From an uncultured Colwellia sp. (lineage in GTDB: Bacteria; Pseudomonadota; Gammaproteobacteria; Enterobacterales; Alteromonadaceae): a DNA stretch of 64,000 nt. Shown one piece after another: positions 10,150 to 37,788 of this stretch (its first letter is position 1; the number at the start of each line of letters is the position of its first letter). The DNA lies in the NCBI GenBank assembly GCA_965261045.1, contig CBDHCJ010000002.1, positions 48,975 through 112,974 of the forward strand. Reading direction: 5' to 3'. Position numbers and translations under genes: made by a program. The notes beneath the pieces are model-generated. The model saw nothing but the letters and a program-made list of their open reading frames with translations, was not told the origin of the DNA and made no database searches.

Positions 10150-10200
10150 ATTTAAGACATTAGTATTTAAGACATTAGTATTTAAGACATTAGTATTTAA
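10150..10200. repeat. 15-bp tandem repeat x3 (atttaagacattagt)
   Basis: Three exact copies plus a partial fourth, cutA-fxsA intergenic. Confidence 0.95.
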
Positions 10201-10238
10201 GGCATGGTTGCTAACAAGTGTGCTAACAAATAATTTGC

Positions 10239-10293: not shown

Positions 10294-10860
10294 ATGTTTC
10301 GTGTATTATTTGTACTTTTTATTATCATCCCTATTATTGAAATTAGTGTGTTAATGCAAGTAGGTGAGTTACTAGGAATGTGGCCAACTATCGGTATTGT
10401 TATTTTTAGTGCTTGGCTAGGCGCAAAATATGTCCGTCAACAAGGCATAGCAACGCTACAGTCGGTGCAAGCTAAAATAGCACAAGGCGAAATACCATCA
10501 AATGAAATTGTTACAGGGCTGATGTTGCTCGTTGCTGGGGTGTTATTAGTTACTCCTGGGTTTGTTACCGACGTTTTTGGTCTGTTGTTACTTGTACCTA
10601 ATGTTCGTCAAGCAATAGCAATTAGTGTGCAAAAACATATTAAAGTTAATCCTTATGTTACCAGAAGCGGTGCAAGATCGAGCTTTAATACGGACAATAC
10701 CTACACGGACAATACCTACACGGACAATACCTACACGGGCAATACCTACGAACATCAAGCTAGCTCTCAAGCATCAAACCAAGACAGTCACAATATCTCT
10801 CATCATCAAGGTGAAACAATTGAAGGTGAATATTCTCGTAAAGATTCTTGTAAAGAATAA
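10294..10860 (+). CDS. fxsA: FxsA family membrane protein with an in-frame (TDNTY)n expansion
   Basis: IIPIIEISVLMQVG...LLVTPGFVTD...TIEGEY; 15-bp unit x4 at 10690..10749. Confidence 0.93.
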   Translation: MFRVLFVLFIIIPIIEISVLMQVGELLGMWPTIGIVIFSAWLGAKYVRQQGIATLQSVQAKIAQGEIPSNEIVTGLMLLVAGVLLVTPGFVTDVFGLLLLVPNVRQAIAISVQKHIKVNPYVTRSGARSSFNTDNTYTDNTYTDNTYTGNTYEHQASSQASNQDSHNISHHQGETIEGEYSRKDSCKE

Positions 10861-13119: not shown

Positions 13120-14121
13120 ATGACAGTAAATACACCACAACCTGATAATCAATTGAATAAGAGCCAAAAATCAGAGCTACTTAAATTGAAAGATCGTTTT
13201 AATTCGTCACTTTTGGATATTATGAATACGTCAGGAAAATATAATGCTAACTTAGATTTGCTTAAAGTATGGCCTGAAACGAATAATTTACCTGAACTTT
13301 ATAGTCAGCTAACCGAGCTAAAAGAGTGTCTTAATAGTTTTAGACCGCTTAATCCAAACATGGTAAAAAACTTAAACAAAGAACTCGACATTAAATATAC
13401 CTACGAATCAAACTGTATCGAAGGAAATTCATTAACGCTAGGTGAAACAGACCAAGTAATTAATACAGGCCTAACCATTGGTGGTAAGCCACTTGTAGAC
13501 CATTTAGAAGCTATTAACCATCAAGAGGCTATCCAATACATTCGTGATTTGGCTAAGGATGAAATTGAGTTTTCAGAGCATGAAATTAAAAATATTAACT
13601 CGCTTATACTTAAAGGTATTCAAAACGAACATAAAGGTCAATATAGGCAACAACCTGTATTTGTAATGCAGCAAGATGGCAGCAAACACCAGTTTCCACA
13701 GCCTTATATTTTGCCAAAATTGATGGAAGATTTTTTTCTGTTTTTTAATAAAAACAAAAATACGTTACACCCTGTTGAAATGGCAGCACACCTTCATCAA
13801 AAGCTGGTAAATATTCACCCTTTTATTGACGGAAACGGGCGTACTTCAAGATTAGTTATGAATTTATACTTATTTCAACATGGCTACCCAGTAACAGTTA
13901 TTGATTCTGAAATGAGTAAACGCAAAGCATATTACACCGTATTATCAAATTATCGTGGTGTCATCAGTGGTGGTGACAGTAAACCATTTCAATTATTTGT
14001 TGCTCAAAAAGCAAAAGAATCACTAATTGAACAAGTAAACTTTTTTTCTCAAGATGGTACCGATGAAGGAAAAGAAAAAGGTTATGAATTCTTTAAAAAA
14101 ATTGAACATTTACTTATGTAA
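13120..14121 (+). CDS. Fic family protein with intramolecular inhibitory helix motif
   Basis: Canonical HPFIDGNGRTSR; upstream SNCIEG matches (S/T)xxxE(G/N). Confidence 0.92.
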   Translation: MTVNTPQPDNQLNKSQKSELLKLKDRFNSSLLDIMNTSGKYNANLDLLKVWPETNNLPELYSQLTELKECLNSFRPLNPNMVKNLNKELDIKYTYESNCIEGNSLTLGETDQVINTGLTIGGKPLVDHLEAINHQEAIQYIRDLAKDEIEFSEHEIKNINSLILKGIQNEHKGQYRQQPVFVMQQDGSKHQFPQPYILPKLMEDFFLFFNKNKNTLHPVEMAAHLHQKLVNIHPFIDGNGRTSRLVMNLYLFQHGYPVTVIDSEMSKRKAYYTVLSNYRGVISGGDSKPFQLFVAQKAKESLIEQVNFFSQDGTDEGKEKGYEFFKKIEHLLM

Positions 14122-25804: not shown

Positions 25805-25903
25805 AAATATTCAGGATTGATATTAACTGACAGATTAATTATTATTTTTATAACCTATTGAAGATGAAGTACTATCACCATATCCCGTTGAATTTCCTAC
25901 AGT

Positions 25904-26388
25904 GTGAAGGGGAAATCCTTTCCACGCCCTAATAAACTTCTGCAATTTGCCAAATTATTAAAGTTAGGTTTTGCTGAACTTGTTATCAACGAAGAGCCAC
26001 ATGCTCCCGTTATAGCTTTTAGAAAAAAAGCGGGCTCTAAAACTAAAGACCACCATGTTAAAAAAGCACCTAAAAGAAAATAATAAGGGTGCTGGTTTTG
26101 TTCAAACAGTAACAGATATGCCATTGTTAGACGCTCGAAGTATCCACTCCGAGTTGACTTAATGCCCCAGTCTAAAATTTTAGTTGTTTCCCTGTCATAA
26201 GTAGAAAACAAAAAAAAGCGATTGAAAGTACCTTTTAATTCATCTGGGATCATGTTCAAACAGAATTGCCAGGACCATCAAAAGTAGATGCTTTATATAT
26301 TGCTTATGCTCTTGAATTAGGAATACCAGTGGTTACTGATGATCAAGATATGACGGAACTTGCTACAGCATTGGTAGTTGACGTCTGA
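25904..26388 (+). pseudogene. Remnant of a two-gene XRE-HTH-type DNA-binding protein + PIN-domain cassette
   Basis: Fragments SFPRPNKLLQFAKLLKLGFAELV...PVIAFRKK; TDMPLLDARSIHSELT* overlapping (TAATG, 26160..26164) MPQSKILV; then SRKQKKAIESTF*FIWDHVQTELPGPSKVDALYIAYALELGIPVVTDDQDM. Confidence 0.65.
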
Positions 26389-26518
26389 TAGGTTATTGAT
26401 TTTTACGCAAGTCATGCAAATGGATAGTTTTACCTTACGCCAGAGGCGTTATAATGAGGAGAGTTCATTGATATAGGCTAAAAAACAGGCTAAAAATGAA
26501 CTCCGAAACTTGATTTAG

Positions 26519-28030
26519 TTATAATAACGAGGCAATAAACTTTGTAAAAGAAGCGATATCTTCTCTTACACTAGCTGATTCAAGTGCCTGCGTATAATCA
26601 TCTCTGCGCTCAACGGGTACAACTGTCCATGGGTACCCACCTGATGCCATCATTAAGTTCATGATGAATCTACCCATACGGCCATTACCATCAAAATATG
26701 GATGTATATAAACAAAGAGAAAATGACCTAAGATAACTCTTACGGCTGGATTGTCCTCTTCCATCAATAGATCAAAAAATGCAGGCATCATATCTCGAAT
26801 AGCTTCTCGACTTGGCGGTGTATGCATCGACTTTCGGATATAAACAGGAGCTGTTCTATAACCAGCCAAATCAGATTGTTTAACAATACCTGCGGCAACA
26901 CTTGGCCCAAATAACGCTAAGTACCAATCAGCATGAGTAGCCTCTAATACATCACCAGGGTTTTCACCATTTAGCACTTTTTCTACGGCAAGTTTTACTA
27001 GCTGAAAAGCATCCCAATAGCCTTTTGCCGCCATAGCGTCTAAATGCTTTTTGCTTTCATCTGATTGTTCTATAAGCCAATTTCCATAACGCACCTGTTC
27101 AATCATCTCATGTGTGACACGATAGCCTTCAATTGATAATGAATGATACGCATCTGTCACAAATTTATCTTCTAACTCAGCTAAGTATCCTTGAGTATCA
27201 ACTGATCCCGTTGGTGCTTCAGGAAAATATTCAATTACGCTCTCTCGCATACTGTGCCACATCAAGCGCATACGATTAACATAAGGCGAGACTTCACGGC
27301 GACTAAAAGTGATTTCAGTTTTATCTTCAAAAGGGTCTATTTCTTTGACTCTATAATCAATCGCATCCATACCTTTGATGATGTTGTCGGCAATCAAGCT
27401 TCTGCCTATATTTCTAAAGCCTCCAGCTAAACGACCAGCACTGGTGACATGACCACCCTCAAGTAATACCATAAGCACATCTGATGCATCAGTTATCATT
27501 GAAAGCAGTGTTCGCATTTGAATCGGTTTTTGCATAAAGTTGTTTTTTGAACAATGCACAAGGCTTGCTGCCAAGCTGTAAACTCGCAAGCCGTCAATTA
27601 TTGATAGTTGCTCTGCACTTGGAAGCTCCATGCGAATATCAAAAACCGAAGTATTATAAATAAGCTTAGTTGGCTTATTTCGCCCTTTAGGGGAGCGTAC
27701 TAGTAATTGTGGAGGTACCGTTTTATCGCCAATATGAAGTTGAATAGATTGCTCTGGTGATAAGCACCAATTTTGATCAAGGCGCTCATCGAGATAAGAA
27801 GCACAAAAGTCCCAAAATGAAGTATACCAATCGGTACTATCACCCTGTTTTTTATCAGGGCTTGAGGGGATGTACCAGCCACGCATTACTTCATGAATAA
27901 AACCGTGTTTAGTTAAGCGTTCTCTATCACTACGCTCAAGCATTTTAGACTGTACAGCCACAACACCTTTATCTTGTAATTGCTTTAGCTTCCCCAATGA
28001 ATGTGCTAACTTTTCTGAGACTTTATTCAT
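26519..28030 (-). CDS. Long Fic family protein with extended N-terminal (possibly wHTH/AbiEi-like) region
   Basis: HPYFDGNGRMGR motif, SLSIEG inhibitory motif; start at MNKVSEKL after ggtggt RBS-like site. Confidence 0.9.
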   Translation of the reverse strand: MNKVSEKLAHSLGKLKQLQDKGVVAVQSKMLERSDRERLTKHGFIHEVMRGWYIPSSPDKKQGDSTDWYTSFWDFCASYLDERLDQNWCLSPEQSIQLHIGDKTVPPQLLVRSPKGRNKPTKLIYNTSVFDIRMELPSAEQLSIIDGLRVYSLAASLVHCSKNNFMQKPIQMRTLLSMITDASDVLMVLLEGGHVTSAGRLAGGFRNIGRSLIADNIIKGMDAIDYRVKEIDPFEDKTEITFSRREVSPYVNRMRLMWHSMRESVIEYFPEAPTGSVDTQGYLAELEDKFVTDAYHSLSIEGYRVTHEMIEQVRYGNWLIEQSDESKKHLDAMAAKGYWDAFQLVKLAVEKVLNGENPGDVLEATHADWYLALFGPSVAAGIVKQSDLAGYRTAPVYIRKSMHTPPSREAIRDMMPAFFDLLMEEDNPAVRVILGHFLFVYIHPYFDGNGRMGRFIMNLMMASGGYPWTVVPVERRDDYTQALESASVREDIASFTKFIASLL

Positions 28031-28042
28031 GCCAACCACCAT

Positions 28043-28119
28043 TAGCTTTTGATGAAAGTAATTGTTAGCTTTTAATGTAACCCATAACTAGCTTTTAGCG
28101 CAAACAAAAAATAGCTTTT
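28043..28119 (-). repeat. Four AAAAGCTA boxes at exact 23-bp period upstream of the Fic gene
   Basis: tagctttt on + strand at 28043, 28066, 28089, 28112 with 15-bp non-conserved spacers. Confidence 0.9.
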
Positions 28120-28332
28120 AATGTTTTCTATTGTCATTTTATAGTGGTGGCCTTTGTTATTCTTATATTCCTTAGATGCACTTACTATGTGAATCTAAGT
28201 TTTATAAAGCCTTATCGTGAGACATACTTTTTAAATAAAAGCGCGTAAATGCTAAAGATATTTACAGATAATAACGTTAAGATAGCAGCCATATTTGTTA
28301 TTGAGTATTGTAGAGTGTTATAGGGTGTTAAT

Positions 28333-28965
28333 GTGAATTCAATCGAACGTTTAACTGGTATATTAATGCGTTTAGCTATAGAGGCAACGCAAACCGATGC
28401 TATGAATGCGCAAAACAAATCTCATCGCTTAATTGAAAATAACAATTTATTCTCTTCCACACTTTTTGTTAGTCAAAGTGATCGTTTTCTCCCTTACGTT
28501 AAAGAAGTCGAGCGTAGATTGGTTGAATTTACCCGTTTAGTAGCAGCCAATAAAATCGAATTATCGCAGGCATTATTACAGCAGTTAGAACAACAAATAT
28601 CCGCAATATCAAATGCATTACATGCGAATTCAACTATGCATCAAGCAGCAAAGCTAAGCTTTGATGCTAATTATAAAGTAAGAATAAAAAAAGCTAAGGC
28701 TAAACAAGCTAATAAATATCGTAATTTGACCAAAAAGTTGGTGTTGAGTAGCCATCAGCTTTATCAAAAATTAACCGAGCATCACGAATTTGAACAACGT
28801 TTAATGGATATGCTTATAGAGAAAGAGCGACAAAGACTGAAATGCAAAAGTCATGAAAATGAAAAGTTATCTACTGAAGTCTTAACGCTACACCAGCGCC
28901 TTGGTCGCTGTCGTAAAGCCATTTCAACTATTGAACGTGATATTGAGTTAGCTGAAAAGCGCTGA
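28333..28965 (+). CDS. priC: Primosomal replication protein PriC family
   Basis: LFSSTLF.SQSDRFLPYVKE; C-terminal HQRLGRCRKAISTIERDIE. Confidence 0.8.
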   Translation: MNSIERLTGILMRLAIEATQTDAMNAQNKSHRLIENNNLFSSTLFVSQSDRFLPYVKEVERRLVEFTRLVAANKIELSQALLQQLEQQISAISNALHANSTMHQAAKLSFDANYKVRIKKAKAKQANKYRNLTKKLVLSSHQLYQKLTEHHEFEQRLMDMLIEKERQRLKCKSHENEKLSTEVLTLHQRLGRCRKAISTIERDIELAEKR

Positions 28966-29112
28966 TGCTACCTAAATACTCACATTTTACCCACACCATT
29001 TTACCTACACCAAGGTTACTCTTTGATTAATGTAACCCTGGTGTGTCATCTTTGTGGTGTCTAAATCGAGCACCTTGCGTTTAAGTTACCAATATTTATA
29101 GTGAAGGGTATA

Positions 29113-29188
29113 TGGCGCTTCATGCAGGAGTCGAACCTGCGCATCCAGCTTAGGAGGCCGGCACTCTATCCAACTGAGTTAATGAAGC
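29113..29188 (-). tRNA. tRNA-Arg (anticodon CCT)
   Basis: Cloverleaf GCTTCAT/ATGAAGC, D-arm ACTC/GAGT, anticodon loop CT-CCT-AA, T-arm GCAGG-TTCGACT-CCTGC, encoded CCA. Confidence 0.93.
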
Positions 29189-29474
29189 ATGGGAGGTACT
29201 ATACTAAATTAATAATCAACAAGAAGCTATTCCTCTATTACAAACTAATCAAGCAGGTGGTAAGTTTTATACTCACGCAATAAAATTGATGAAATTATCA
29301 CTAAATGTGAGTTAGCTTATGCAAAAGTTGAAATGTTAATATCTGTTTATCAAAAGAAAGTCCTTCTTAGTTTTTTTTATCGTAGACTTATCGAGTTAAA
29401 TTTATGTTAAGCTAATACGGCTTTTCTGCACTTTATTTAAAAAAAAAATTAGTCATTGCAAGGAATTAGACTCT

Positions 29475-36815: not shown

Positions 36816-37718
36816 ATGAATTGGGATGATATTAAATTATTTTTAGAAGTTGCACGCAGCGAGCGTCTATCAATTGCCAGCAAGCGATTAACAATTGATG
36901 CCTCAACTTTGTCACGCCGGCTACACAAACTTGAAGAAAGTTTAGCAACCAAACTTTTTGAGCGTACGGTTGATGGCCATGTCTTAACGTCTGACGGCAC
37001 TAAGTTATTACAATATGCATGCCGTATGGAACTTGATGCCGGACAAGCTTTTGATGTTATTAAAGAGCAAAAAAACTTAAACAGTGGTCGAGTACGTATA
37101 GGAGTAACCGAAGCGTTTGGTAGCTTTTTTATCGCGCCTCATTTAAAACAACTCAAGCAAGCATTCCCTGATATACAAATAGAGTTAGTACATTTTTCCC
37201 GTGATGTAAAAATTAGCCGTAATGAAGCCGACATCGCTATCGCAGTGGAAAAGCCCAAAAGCACTTCTACTATTATTACTAAACTTTGCGATTATCAGTT
37301 GCAGTTATATGGTCATGCGAGTTACCTTGAAAACATTCCCAACGAAGTAGTGTTTAGTCAGTTAACTGATCATCAATGGGTTAGTTATGTCGATAATCTA
37401 TTATTCACCGAGCAATTGTCTTATTTAAAAGAACTTAGCGCTGCGCTGAGAGCAGATATTGTGCCTAGTTTTCAAAGCACCAGTATTACTAGCCAGTATA
37501 GCGCAATAAAAAGTGGCTTAGGAATCGGCATTTTGCCTTGCTTTTTAGCAGAGCAAGATGCTAGCTTAGTTAAACTATGTATTAATGATATTAAATTAGT
37601 GCGTAGCTTTTATCTTGTTACTCATCCAGAAAGTAAACGCTTATCACAGGTGAATACGGTTTGGCAGTACTTGAAGCAATTGGCACAAGAAAAAACTCAC
37701 TTACTCATGCCTAAATAA
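36816..37718 (+). CDS. LysR-family regulator divergent from mmsA
   Basis: [14 protein letters not shown]...[14 protein letters not shown]. Confidence 0.92.
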
Positions 37719-37762
37719 TTATAAGCATGAATAATTATAAGCATGAATAATTATAAGCATGA
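37715..37762. repeat. 16-bp tandem repeat x3 (ataattataagcatga)
   Basis: Three exact copies at the LysR stop. Confidence 0.95.
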
Positions 37763-37788
37763 ATAAAATTTAAAATATATAGGTAAAC

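Follow-up and report, generated by a model that had tools for sequence, protein, structure and literature searches.

A family of AbiEi-like/Fic fusion genes preceded by a predicted autoregulatory operator array

The Fusion Gene and Its Fic Half

The window, that is the whole stretch of 64,000 nucleotides analyzed here, carries on its minus strand a gene coding for a fusion of an AbiEi-like protein with a Fic enzyme (26519–28030; 503 amino acids plus stop codon) and, directly upstream of it, a predicted operator array of four short boxes. The gene was delimited from its open reading frame and translation, and the homologues likewise have 503 amino acids. The open reading frame itself spans 26519–28042 and contains two in-frame ATGs, one at 28042, which abuts the last box of the array, and one at 28030. 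We took the latter as the start codon, since the homologues begin at the matching position and a Shine–Dalgarno-like GGTGG (28036–28040, minus strand) is found 5 nt before this ATG. At this Shine–Dalgarno-like position the sequence GGTG is conserved across the query clade.

The Fic core comprises amino acids 249–503 (26522–27286, minus strand), as judged from Pfam, from the sequence match to proteins in the PDB and from the fold. It runs to the C-terminus of the protein, and the DNA-binding-type module is N-terminal to it. The Pfam Fic model (PF02661) matches with a score of 46.3 bits (cut-off 24). The active-site motif HPYFDGNGRMGR (amino acids 443–454; 26669–26704, minus strand), whose residues are invariant in 23 homologues, fits the sequence HxFx(D/E)GNGRxxR required of class II Fic proteins. 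The translation and the homologue alignment further reveal the inhibitory-helix motif SLSIEG of class II Fic proteins (amino acids 297–302; 27125–27142, minus strand), which has the form (S/T)xxxE(G/N) and is located in the same chain on the N-terminal side of the Fic core. In this motif S297, L298, S299, I300, and E301 are invariant in the 23 homologues, and G302 is replaced by K or R in the Bacteroidota members. The initial annotation had counted about 280 amino acids N-terminal to the inhibitory helix and the Fic core; this has to be modified to the position of the motif given above and to a non-Fic N-terminal part of about 240–250 amino acids.

An AlphaFold2 (AF2) model of the full-length protein (pLDDT 90.4, pTM 0.86) predicts one compact two-module protein. 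When this model was used for a Foldseek search we obtained 47 Fic matches in the PDB at E ≤ 1e-3 with FICD as the best one, and also by sequence no solved structure is closer to the Fic half than FICD/HYPE (PDB 6I7G and others; E 8e-20, amino acids 225–505). FICD/HYPE is likewise a class II enzyme whose inhibitory glutamate is N-terminal; it is, however, a eukaryotic enzyme of the ER with TPR and transmembrane parts and has no DNA-binding module. By sequence and fold the protein is a predicted AMP-transferase of the Fic/Fido type, class II and glutamate-inhibited, with an intact active site.

The N-Terminal Half Resembles AbiEi

Since the Fic matches swamped the Foldseek results of the full-length model, a separate model was made of the first ~280 amino acids (AF2, pLDDT 84, above 90 over most of amino acids 10–230). 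This model shows in succession a helix, a short helix, the recognition helix, the wing and then a mixed alpha/beta domain. Amino acids 1–60 (27851–28030, minus strand) form a predicted winged helix-turn-helix (wHTH), which is supported by a pLDDT of ~90 in this part and by Foldseek. The predicted recognition helix (amino acids 33–41) is contained in the sequence ERSDRERLTKHG (27902–27937, minus strand), and the beta-hairpin strands of amino acids 45–55 make up the predicted wing. The following part (amino acids 61–225; 27356–27850, minus strand) resembles AbiEi's C-terminal domain with its nucleotidyltransferase-like (NTase-like) fold, as deduced from the Foldseek alignment to Rv2827c.

The top two matches of the N-terminal model in the PDB, both with a probability of 1.00, are Rv2827c (1ZEL; 267 aligned columns, TM 0.48/0.46, E 1.3e-4) and AbiEi (6Y8Q; E 1.4e-4), followed by the NTase-fold proteins 4OK0, 4O8S, and 5KQJ. 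The wHTH that the initial annotation had proposed for this part is thus predicted, together with an NTase-like domain. At the level of sequence, amino acids 1–277 gave no match in Pfam even at E ≤ 10, the AbiEi models included, which distinguishes the fusion protein from AbiEi itself; NCBIfam assigned no family to the first ~280 amino acids, and a profile of the N-terminal part found no PDB sequence at E ≤ 10. Only the fold comparison reveals the relationship to AbiEi, with a moderate match (TM 0.46–0.48). According to the models the protein is a complete AbiEi-like repressor/antitoxin module (amino acids 1 to ~240) that is connected by a linker to a presumably self-inhibited Fic enzyme.

A Periodic Array Upstream of the Gene

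The predicted operator array (28043–28124, minus strand) consists of four AAAAGCTA boxes, which we number in the direction of the gene. Box 1 is found at 28112–28119, box 2 at 28089–28096, box 3 at 28066–28073 and box 4 at 28043–28050, with an exact period of 23/23/23; on the plus strand the box reads TAGCTTTT. These are the four identical 8-bp boxes at an exact 23-bp period described in the initial annotation, and we recovered them at the same coordinates. When the window was block-shuffled 200 times, no 8-mer ever occurred four times at equal spacing. The AAAAGCTA 8-mer itself is present 15 times in the window compared to 6.75 ± 2.5 times in the shuffles, and the pair AAAAGCTA-N15-AAAAGCTA has its sole occurrence in the 3.18-Mb genome in the array upstream of the fic gene. 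Two details have to be modified. The last box is separated from the ATG at 28030 by 12 nt and not by 13, and the spacers, which had been called unrelated, are not entirely so: boxes 1 and 3 have a 13-nt unit, ACATTAAAAGCTA, in common. Considering this common unit and the result of TRF (period 23 bp, match 72%), the array looks like an old tandem repeat of which only the box cores have been maintained.

Conservation of the Array Among Homologues

A scan of species-representative genomes yielded 80 loci with 51–82% identity. For each locus we took the 130 nt preceding the start codon and determined the best autocorrelation lag over the range 8–40. Twenty-two homologue loci gave a lag of 23 and 55 a lag of 24, which accounts for all 77 that were scored, and the periodic boxes of the 23-bp type that had been expected upstream of the homologues are therefore present with a period of either 23 or 24. 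With de novo unit finding, 3–5 units were detected in 76 loci, among which are members with identities of 57% and 35%. Across the loci the array is always situated directly 5′ of the fic start codon and in a single orientation.

The box sequence depends on the lineage, and AAAAGCTA, AAAACCTA, TTATAATTT, and AAGCGA are found across the family. In the query clade (G-box, G23) the extended box has the consensus CAyTAAAAGCTAA with a period of 23, and in the C-box clade (C24; Alteromonas/Shewanella/Rheinheimera-type) it is CAyTAAAACCTATAAA with a period of 24. Bacteroidota members have an ATATTATAATTTTG box with a period of 24, a single member at 57% identity has an ATAAGCGA box, and a copy with 35% identity that comes from the same genus has a box of the type GTTCGTAAyTAC with a period of 23. 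The alphaproteobacterial plasmid copies carry AAACCCTAA or AAAGCGAAAT boxes with a period of 24. The copy on p5482 of B. thetaiotaomicron is less regular (three boxes with spacings of 21 and 24), and at one locus (L077) the array is weak. The same arrangement of gene and array, which is apparently undescribed, recurs in this family across several bacterial phyla and plasmids.

Promoter Geometry and Proposed Autorepression

In 20 loci of the query clade the hexamer TTGCAT is conserved 5′ of the third-from-last box and TACACT 5′ of the next box, 18 nt apart. The respective sequences in the window are TTGCGC (predicted −35 hexamer; 28098–28103, minus strand) directly 5′ of box 2 and TACATT (predicted −10 hexamer; 28074–28079, minus strand) directly 5′ of box 3, likewise 18 nt after the −35 hexamer. 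The equivalents in the C-box clade are (T/G)TGACA and TATAAC, 17 nt apart, and in both gammaproteobacterial clades the hexamers have fixed positions in the two promoter-proximal units. With their 5′ part the extended boxes reach into the predicted hexamers. The spacer between −35 and −10 is taken up by box 2, box 3 covers the predicted transcription start (~28067), and box 4 is located in the predicted leader of ~37 nt beside the ribosome-binding site. A generic promoter scan pointed to another pair further upstream, ATGACA-18-TATTTT, which is not conserved in the homologues.

With box 4 and a part of box 3 being within the predicted 5′ leader, the repeats could be thought to act as RNA, either as a small-RNA array or as a structured leader. 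Most boxes, however, are upstream of the predicted start, and in the C-box clade the last box is 40–60 nt away from the ATG. Moreover, there is no Rfam match at E ≤ 1 and the predicted fold is weaker than that of shuffled sequences (z +1.09). These two results agree with the initial annotation, which had regarded a small-RNA array as the less likely alternative, and we consider an action as RNA extremely improbable.

As the predicted −35 and −10 hexamers alternate with the boxes, autorepression is implied, and because a filled array should exclude RNA polymerase we read the array as an autorepression operator. In the mechanism that we propose, each 23-bp unit would be occupied by one protomer, whose wHTH would read the core CAyTAAAAGCTAA, which is asymmetric. 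A head-to-tail row of three to five protomers would cover ~90 bp; once filled, the array would keep RNA polymerase out, and the enzyme, which may be toxic, would limit its own amount to a low level. Our best explanation is that the array is the cis-operator by which the AbiEi–Fic protein represses its own gene and that gene and array form a stand-alone, horizontally mobile one-gene module (see below); we put the probability of this explanation as a whole at roughly three in four. Within it we infer binding, repression, the ratio of one protomer per unit and cooperativity alike. The period of 23–24 bp does not correspond to an integral number of helical turns, and a simple cooperative binding on the same face of the DNA is not obvious.

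Box Type and Protein Sequence

On a maximum-likelihood tree of 76 homologue proteins the box classes are near-monophyletic, with 5 changes compared to a mean of 35 after shuffling. The G-box and the C-box class alike include hosts from the Pseudoalteromonadaceae, Colwelliaceae, Alteromonadaceae, and Oceanospirillaceae, and the box type tracks the protein lineage and not the host. Only five of the 503 alignment columns cleanly separate the G23 from the C24 clade, namely M30Q, D35H, L84F, R117N, and L142I. All five are found in the AbiEi-like half (amino acids 30–142) and none in the Fic half, and two of them, M30 and D35, stand on either side of the point where the predicted recognition helix begins, flanking this helix or being part of it. 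This pattern is the one expected if the wHTH reads the box and suggests such a contact without proving it. The co-variation of boxes and N-terminal sequence that had been anticipated is thus observed, in that the box changes with the protein clade and the discriminating residues belong to the N-terminal module with its recognition helix, with the reservation that it is based on about five independent box changes and is confounded with phylogeny.

The boxes might also be bound by a different regulator, encoded by the host or by a mobile element, and in some loci the gene indeed adjoins recombinase or toxin–antitoxin genes. Among the 80 loci, however, no flanking ORF family is common to more than 10, and the search for a conserved partner gene (a small antitoxin, XRE or AbiEii) in these loci found none. 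Given that the box type is independent of the host and that there is no common flanking gene, the specificity determinant must travel with the gene itself. Furthermore, the discriminating residues are in the protein's own wHTH and the array is present nowhere else in the genome. We therefore judge a foreign regulator to be improbable and retain the fusion protein as the most plausible ligand of the array. In that case box G together with M30/D35 and box C together with Q30/H35 would constitute a predicted specificity code, and the family would represent a natural system of orthogonal repressor–operator pairs.

Relation to Known Systems

AbiEi and Rv2827c are the antitoxin-repressors of type IV AbiE toxin–antitoxin and abortive-infection systems. 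The promoter of AbiEi from S. agalactiae has two 23-bp inverted repeats, each of which is bound by a monomer of this protein, and for Rv2827c from M. tuberculosis four 23-bp repeats are bound, spanning −1 to −131, about 130 bp (PMC7319586). The fusion protein shares with both the two-domain build of a wHTH and an NTase-like fold, and its gene has repeats of similar length (23/24 bp) over the predicted promoter, with negative autoregulation known there and predicted here. As AbiEi and Rv2827c bind with one monomer per 23-bp repeat, the 23/24-bp pitch fits one AbiEi-like protomer per unit. The systems differ in that the repeats are direct and contiguous here (period 23/24) whereas they form inverted pairs with gaps there, and in that the module has no AbiEii/DUF1814 toxin gene and is instead covalently fused to a Fic enzyme.

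A combination of Fic and DNA-binding domains in a single protein has precedents. CccR from Yersinia pseudotuberculosis, a secreted T6SS effector, is a Fic protein with an HTH which represses its own promoter (PMC9755527). CccR and SoFic-type proteins have in common with the fusion protein the glutamate-inhibited Fic enzyme and a DNA-binding domain in one chain. In CccR, however, the DNA-binding domain is C-terminal and in an unrelated fold context, whereas it is N-terminal and AbiEi-like here, and the operator of CccR comprises a single pair of inverted repeats, each 10 bp long and separated by 26 bp, as opposed to 3–5 direct repeats here. The SoFic and PDC models of PADLOC match the Fic half only (SoFic amino acids 296–504). 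We rejected an assignment to SoFic, because the match is limited to the Fic part and there is no C-terminal HTH after the Fic core.

A pair of genes of similar composition, V21/V22.1, is found on ICEHptfs3 of H. pylori, where the partner of an AbiEi-like antitoxin gene is a Fic gene which replaces AbiEii (PMC12443045). The swap of the partner, AbiEi-like plus Fic, is the same, but there the two are separate overlapping genes for which no repeat array has been described and here they are one polypeptide. We found no description of the fusion or of the array in the searchable literature, and within this scope the module can still be called undescribed, as it was in the initial annotation. The module combines known kinds, namely AbiEi-type autoregulation and a class II Fic enzyme.

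An alternative role of the array would be that of an assembly platform which sets the oligomeric state of the Fic enzyme and thereby its AMPylase/de-AMPylase activity, with repression being secondary; this would be compatible with the operator reading. The activity of CbFic2 from Coxiella burnetii is regulated by DNA binding via an HTH and is switched through dimerization (PMC10628234). By analogy CbFic2 may serve as a precedent for a coupling of DNA occupancy to Fic activity, although CbFic2, a host-directed effector, carries its HTH at the C-terminus and lacks a specific operator array. In the AbiEi–Fic family the strict pitch of 23/24 bp persists down to 35% identity, which suggests a structural constraint on the packing of protomers, and the single compact protein predicted by AF2 (pTM 0.86) also fits such a role. 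On the other hand, one array per genome could hold only 3–5 molecules per cell, and the promoter elements interleaved with the boxes already account for the position of the array. We consider it unlikely, though worth keeping in mind, that the array is chiefly a platform.

A more far-reaching version is conceivable in which the array is operator and template at the same time. The protomers, three to five in number, would line up on it head to tail, and the DNA-bound assembly would silence the AMPylase, resulting in an addiction or abortive-infection system made of one polypeptide. If the operator were lost or titrated away, active enzyme would be set free, the operator DNA of the gene would be the "antidote", and antitoxin, toxin, and sensor would reside in one chain; the trigger could be that the element is lost, that DNA is damaged or degraded under the action of a phage, or that incoming DNA acts as a competitor. 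This version is speculative, and we regard it as rather doubtful.

Fic enzymes are widespread, and in bacteria their regulation and their targets are mostly unknown. Under the preferred reading of the array as an autorepression operator, the conserved and co-evolving array offers an experimental handle, as it predicts binding site, promoter, and specificity code. The fusion would further indicate that an AbiEi repressor/antitoxin module can be joined to a toxin-type enzyme other than AbiEii, and it would extend the theme of type IV toxin–antitoxin and abortive-infection systems to single-chain modules.

Genomic Context and Distribution

In the window the module is situated between two GH13 amylase genes and priC. 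A C-terminal fragment of a PIN-domain protein adjoins it, as does a repeat of ~125 nt that is present in several copies in the genome, and the setting is consistent with a small accessory islet. An AbiEii (DUF1814) toxin gene adjoining the fusion gene is absent from the window, the neighbors being the amylases, the PIN fragment, and priC. For the ORF of 120 amino acids at 25897–26259 no family match was obtained with Pfam, NCBIfam, or PADLOC. The order amylase–fic–priC was considered as a conserved synteny of the genus and rejected, since in other genomes the flanks are found elsewhere.

Iterons are typically direct repeats of 19–24 bp, and the family is frequent on plasmids (79 plasmid records, 41 of them conjugative). 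The repeats might accordingly be iterons or a centromere-like site serving the replication or partition of a mobile element. The array is chromosomal here, however, and is not accompanied by a Rep, ParA, or ParB gene; in every case it immediately precedes the fic start codon on its 5′ side and has the same orientation, and the plasmid copies are far from typed replicon functions in the annotation seen. Based on the gene context we rejected the iteron, partition, and recombinase-site readings, and a role in replication or partition appears very improbable.

A full-length copy is present in only ~6 of 41 genomes of the same genus. Between these same-genus copies the DNA similarity extends from the stop codon (window positions 26516–26520) to the outer edge of the array (28097–28124). 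As the DNA homology runs between the stop codon and the outermost box, we conclude that gene and array move as one unit, which is the part of our best explanation concerning mobility. The N-terminal module is represented by 1,234 representatives after clustering at 50% identity. In one search the family comprised at least 7,998 proteins (7,998 of 8,000 scored candidates at E ≤ 1e-3), and the annotated copies that were listed are all named just "Fic family protein".

Recombinase-like genes adjoining members of the family

At locus L007, a homologue of the Fic gene taken with its upstream DNA from another genome, the DNA immediately 5′ of the Fic module holds a tandem pair of tyrosine-recombinase-like ORFs of 249 and 337 aa (L007:150-1866), both on the module's strand. 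The same pairing was found at eight or nine further loci of the AAAAGCTA clade, which groups homologues by the box sequence of their upstream arrays. We therefore suggest that in these genomes the Fic module is carried at one end of a mobile element with several recombinases. A small gene annotated as "recombinase family protein" adjoins the family members on two conjugative plasmids, p5482 of B. thetaiotaomicron (L096) and pSpoCB-3 of Sulfitobacter (L097). Plasmid p5482, carried by a model organism that is genetically tractable, would make a handy test bed.

Surroundings of the Fic module in Colwellia

Beside the Fic module of the window there is a 34-aa open stretch with a stop at its end (26284-26388, +). 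It aligns with the last part of the 120-position PIN domain model PF01850, on the C-terminal side (positions 92-118), with an E-value of 3.6e-4 and a score under the gathering score. This stretch is probably the leftover of a VapC-type toxin gene adjoining the module. Just 3′ of the fic stop codon follows a sequence of about 125 nt (26391-26526) with other copies of 75-94% identity on contig 1 of the same genome, near 429.8, 437.3, 907 and 2412.6 kb. It is present also in other genomes of the genus and resembles a small dispersed repeat or a MITE-like element.

On the other side of the module, an imperfect palindrome with 22-nt arms (28163-28207) separates the array from priC, and 3.5 copies of a TGTTATAGAG-like repeat with a 10-bp period (28296-28330) directly precede the priC start codon, a GTG at 28333. 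Between priC and mlaA lies a tRNA-Arg(CCT) gene (29113-29188, −), whose surrounding DNA (about 29111-29353) has many matches in every genome of the genus.

The Fic core has seven matches in the genome, which encodes several further Fic-domain ORFs, one of them in the window at about 13630-13914 (+; 337-aa open frame). Near-perfect short tandem repeats occur at three other sites, two of them built of 15-bp units, at 10150-10205 (3.7 copies) and 10690-10749 (4.0 copies). The third, at 37714-37766, consists of 3.3 copies of a 16-bp unit with 100% match.
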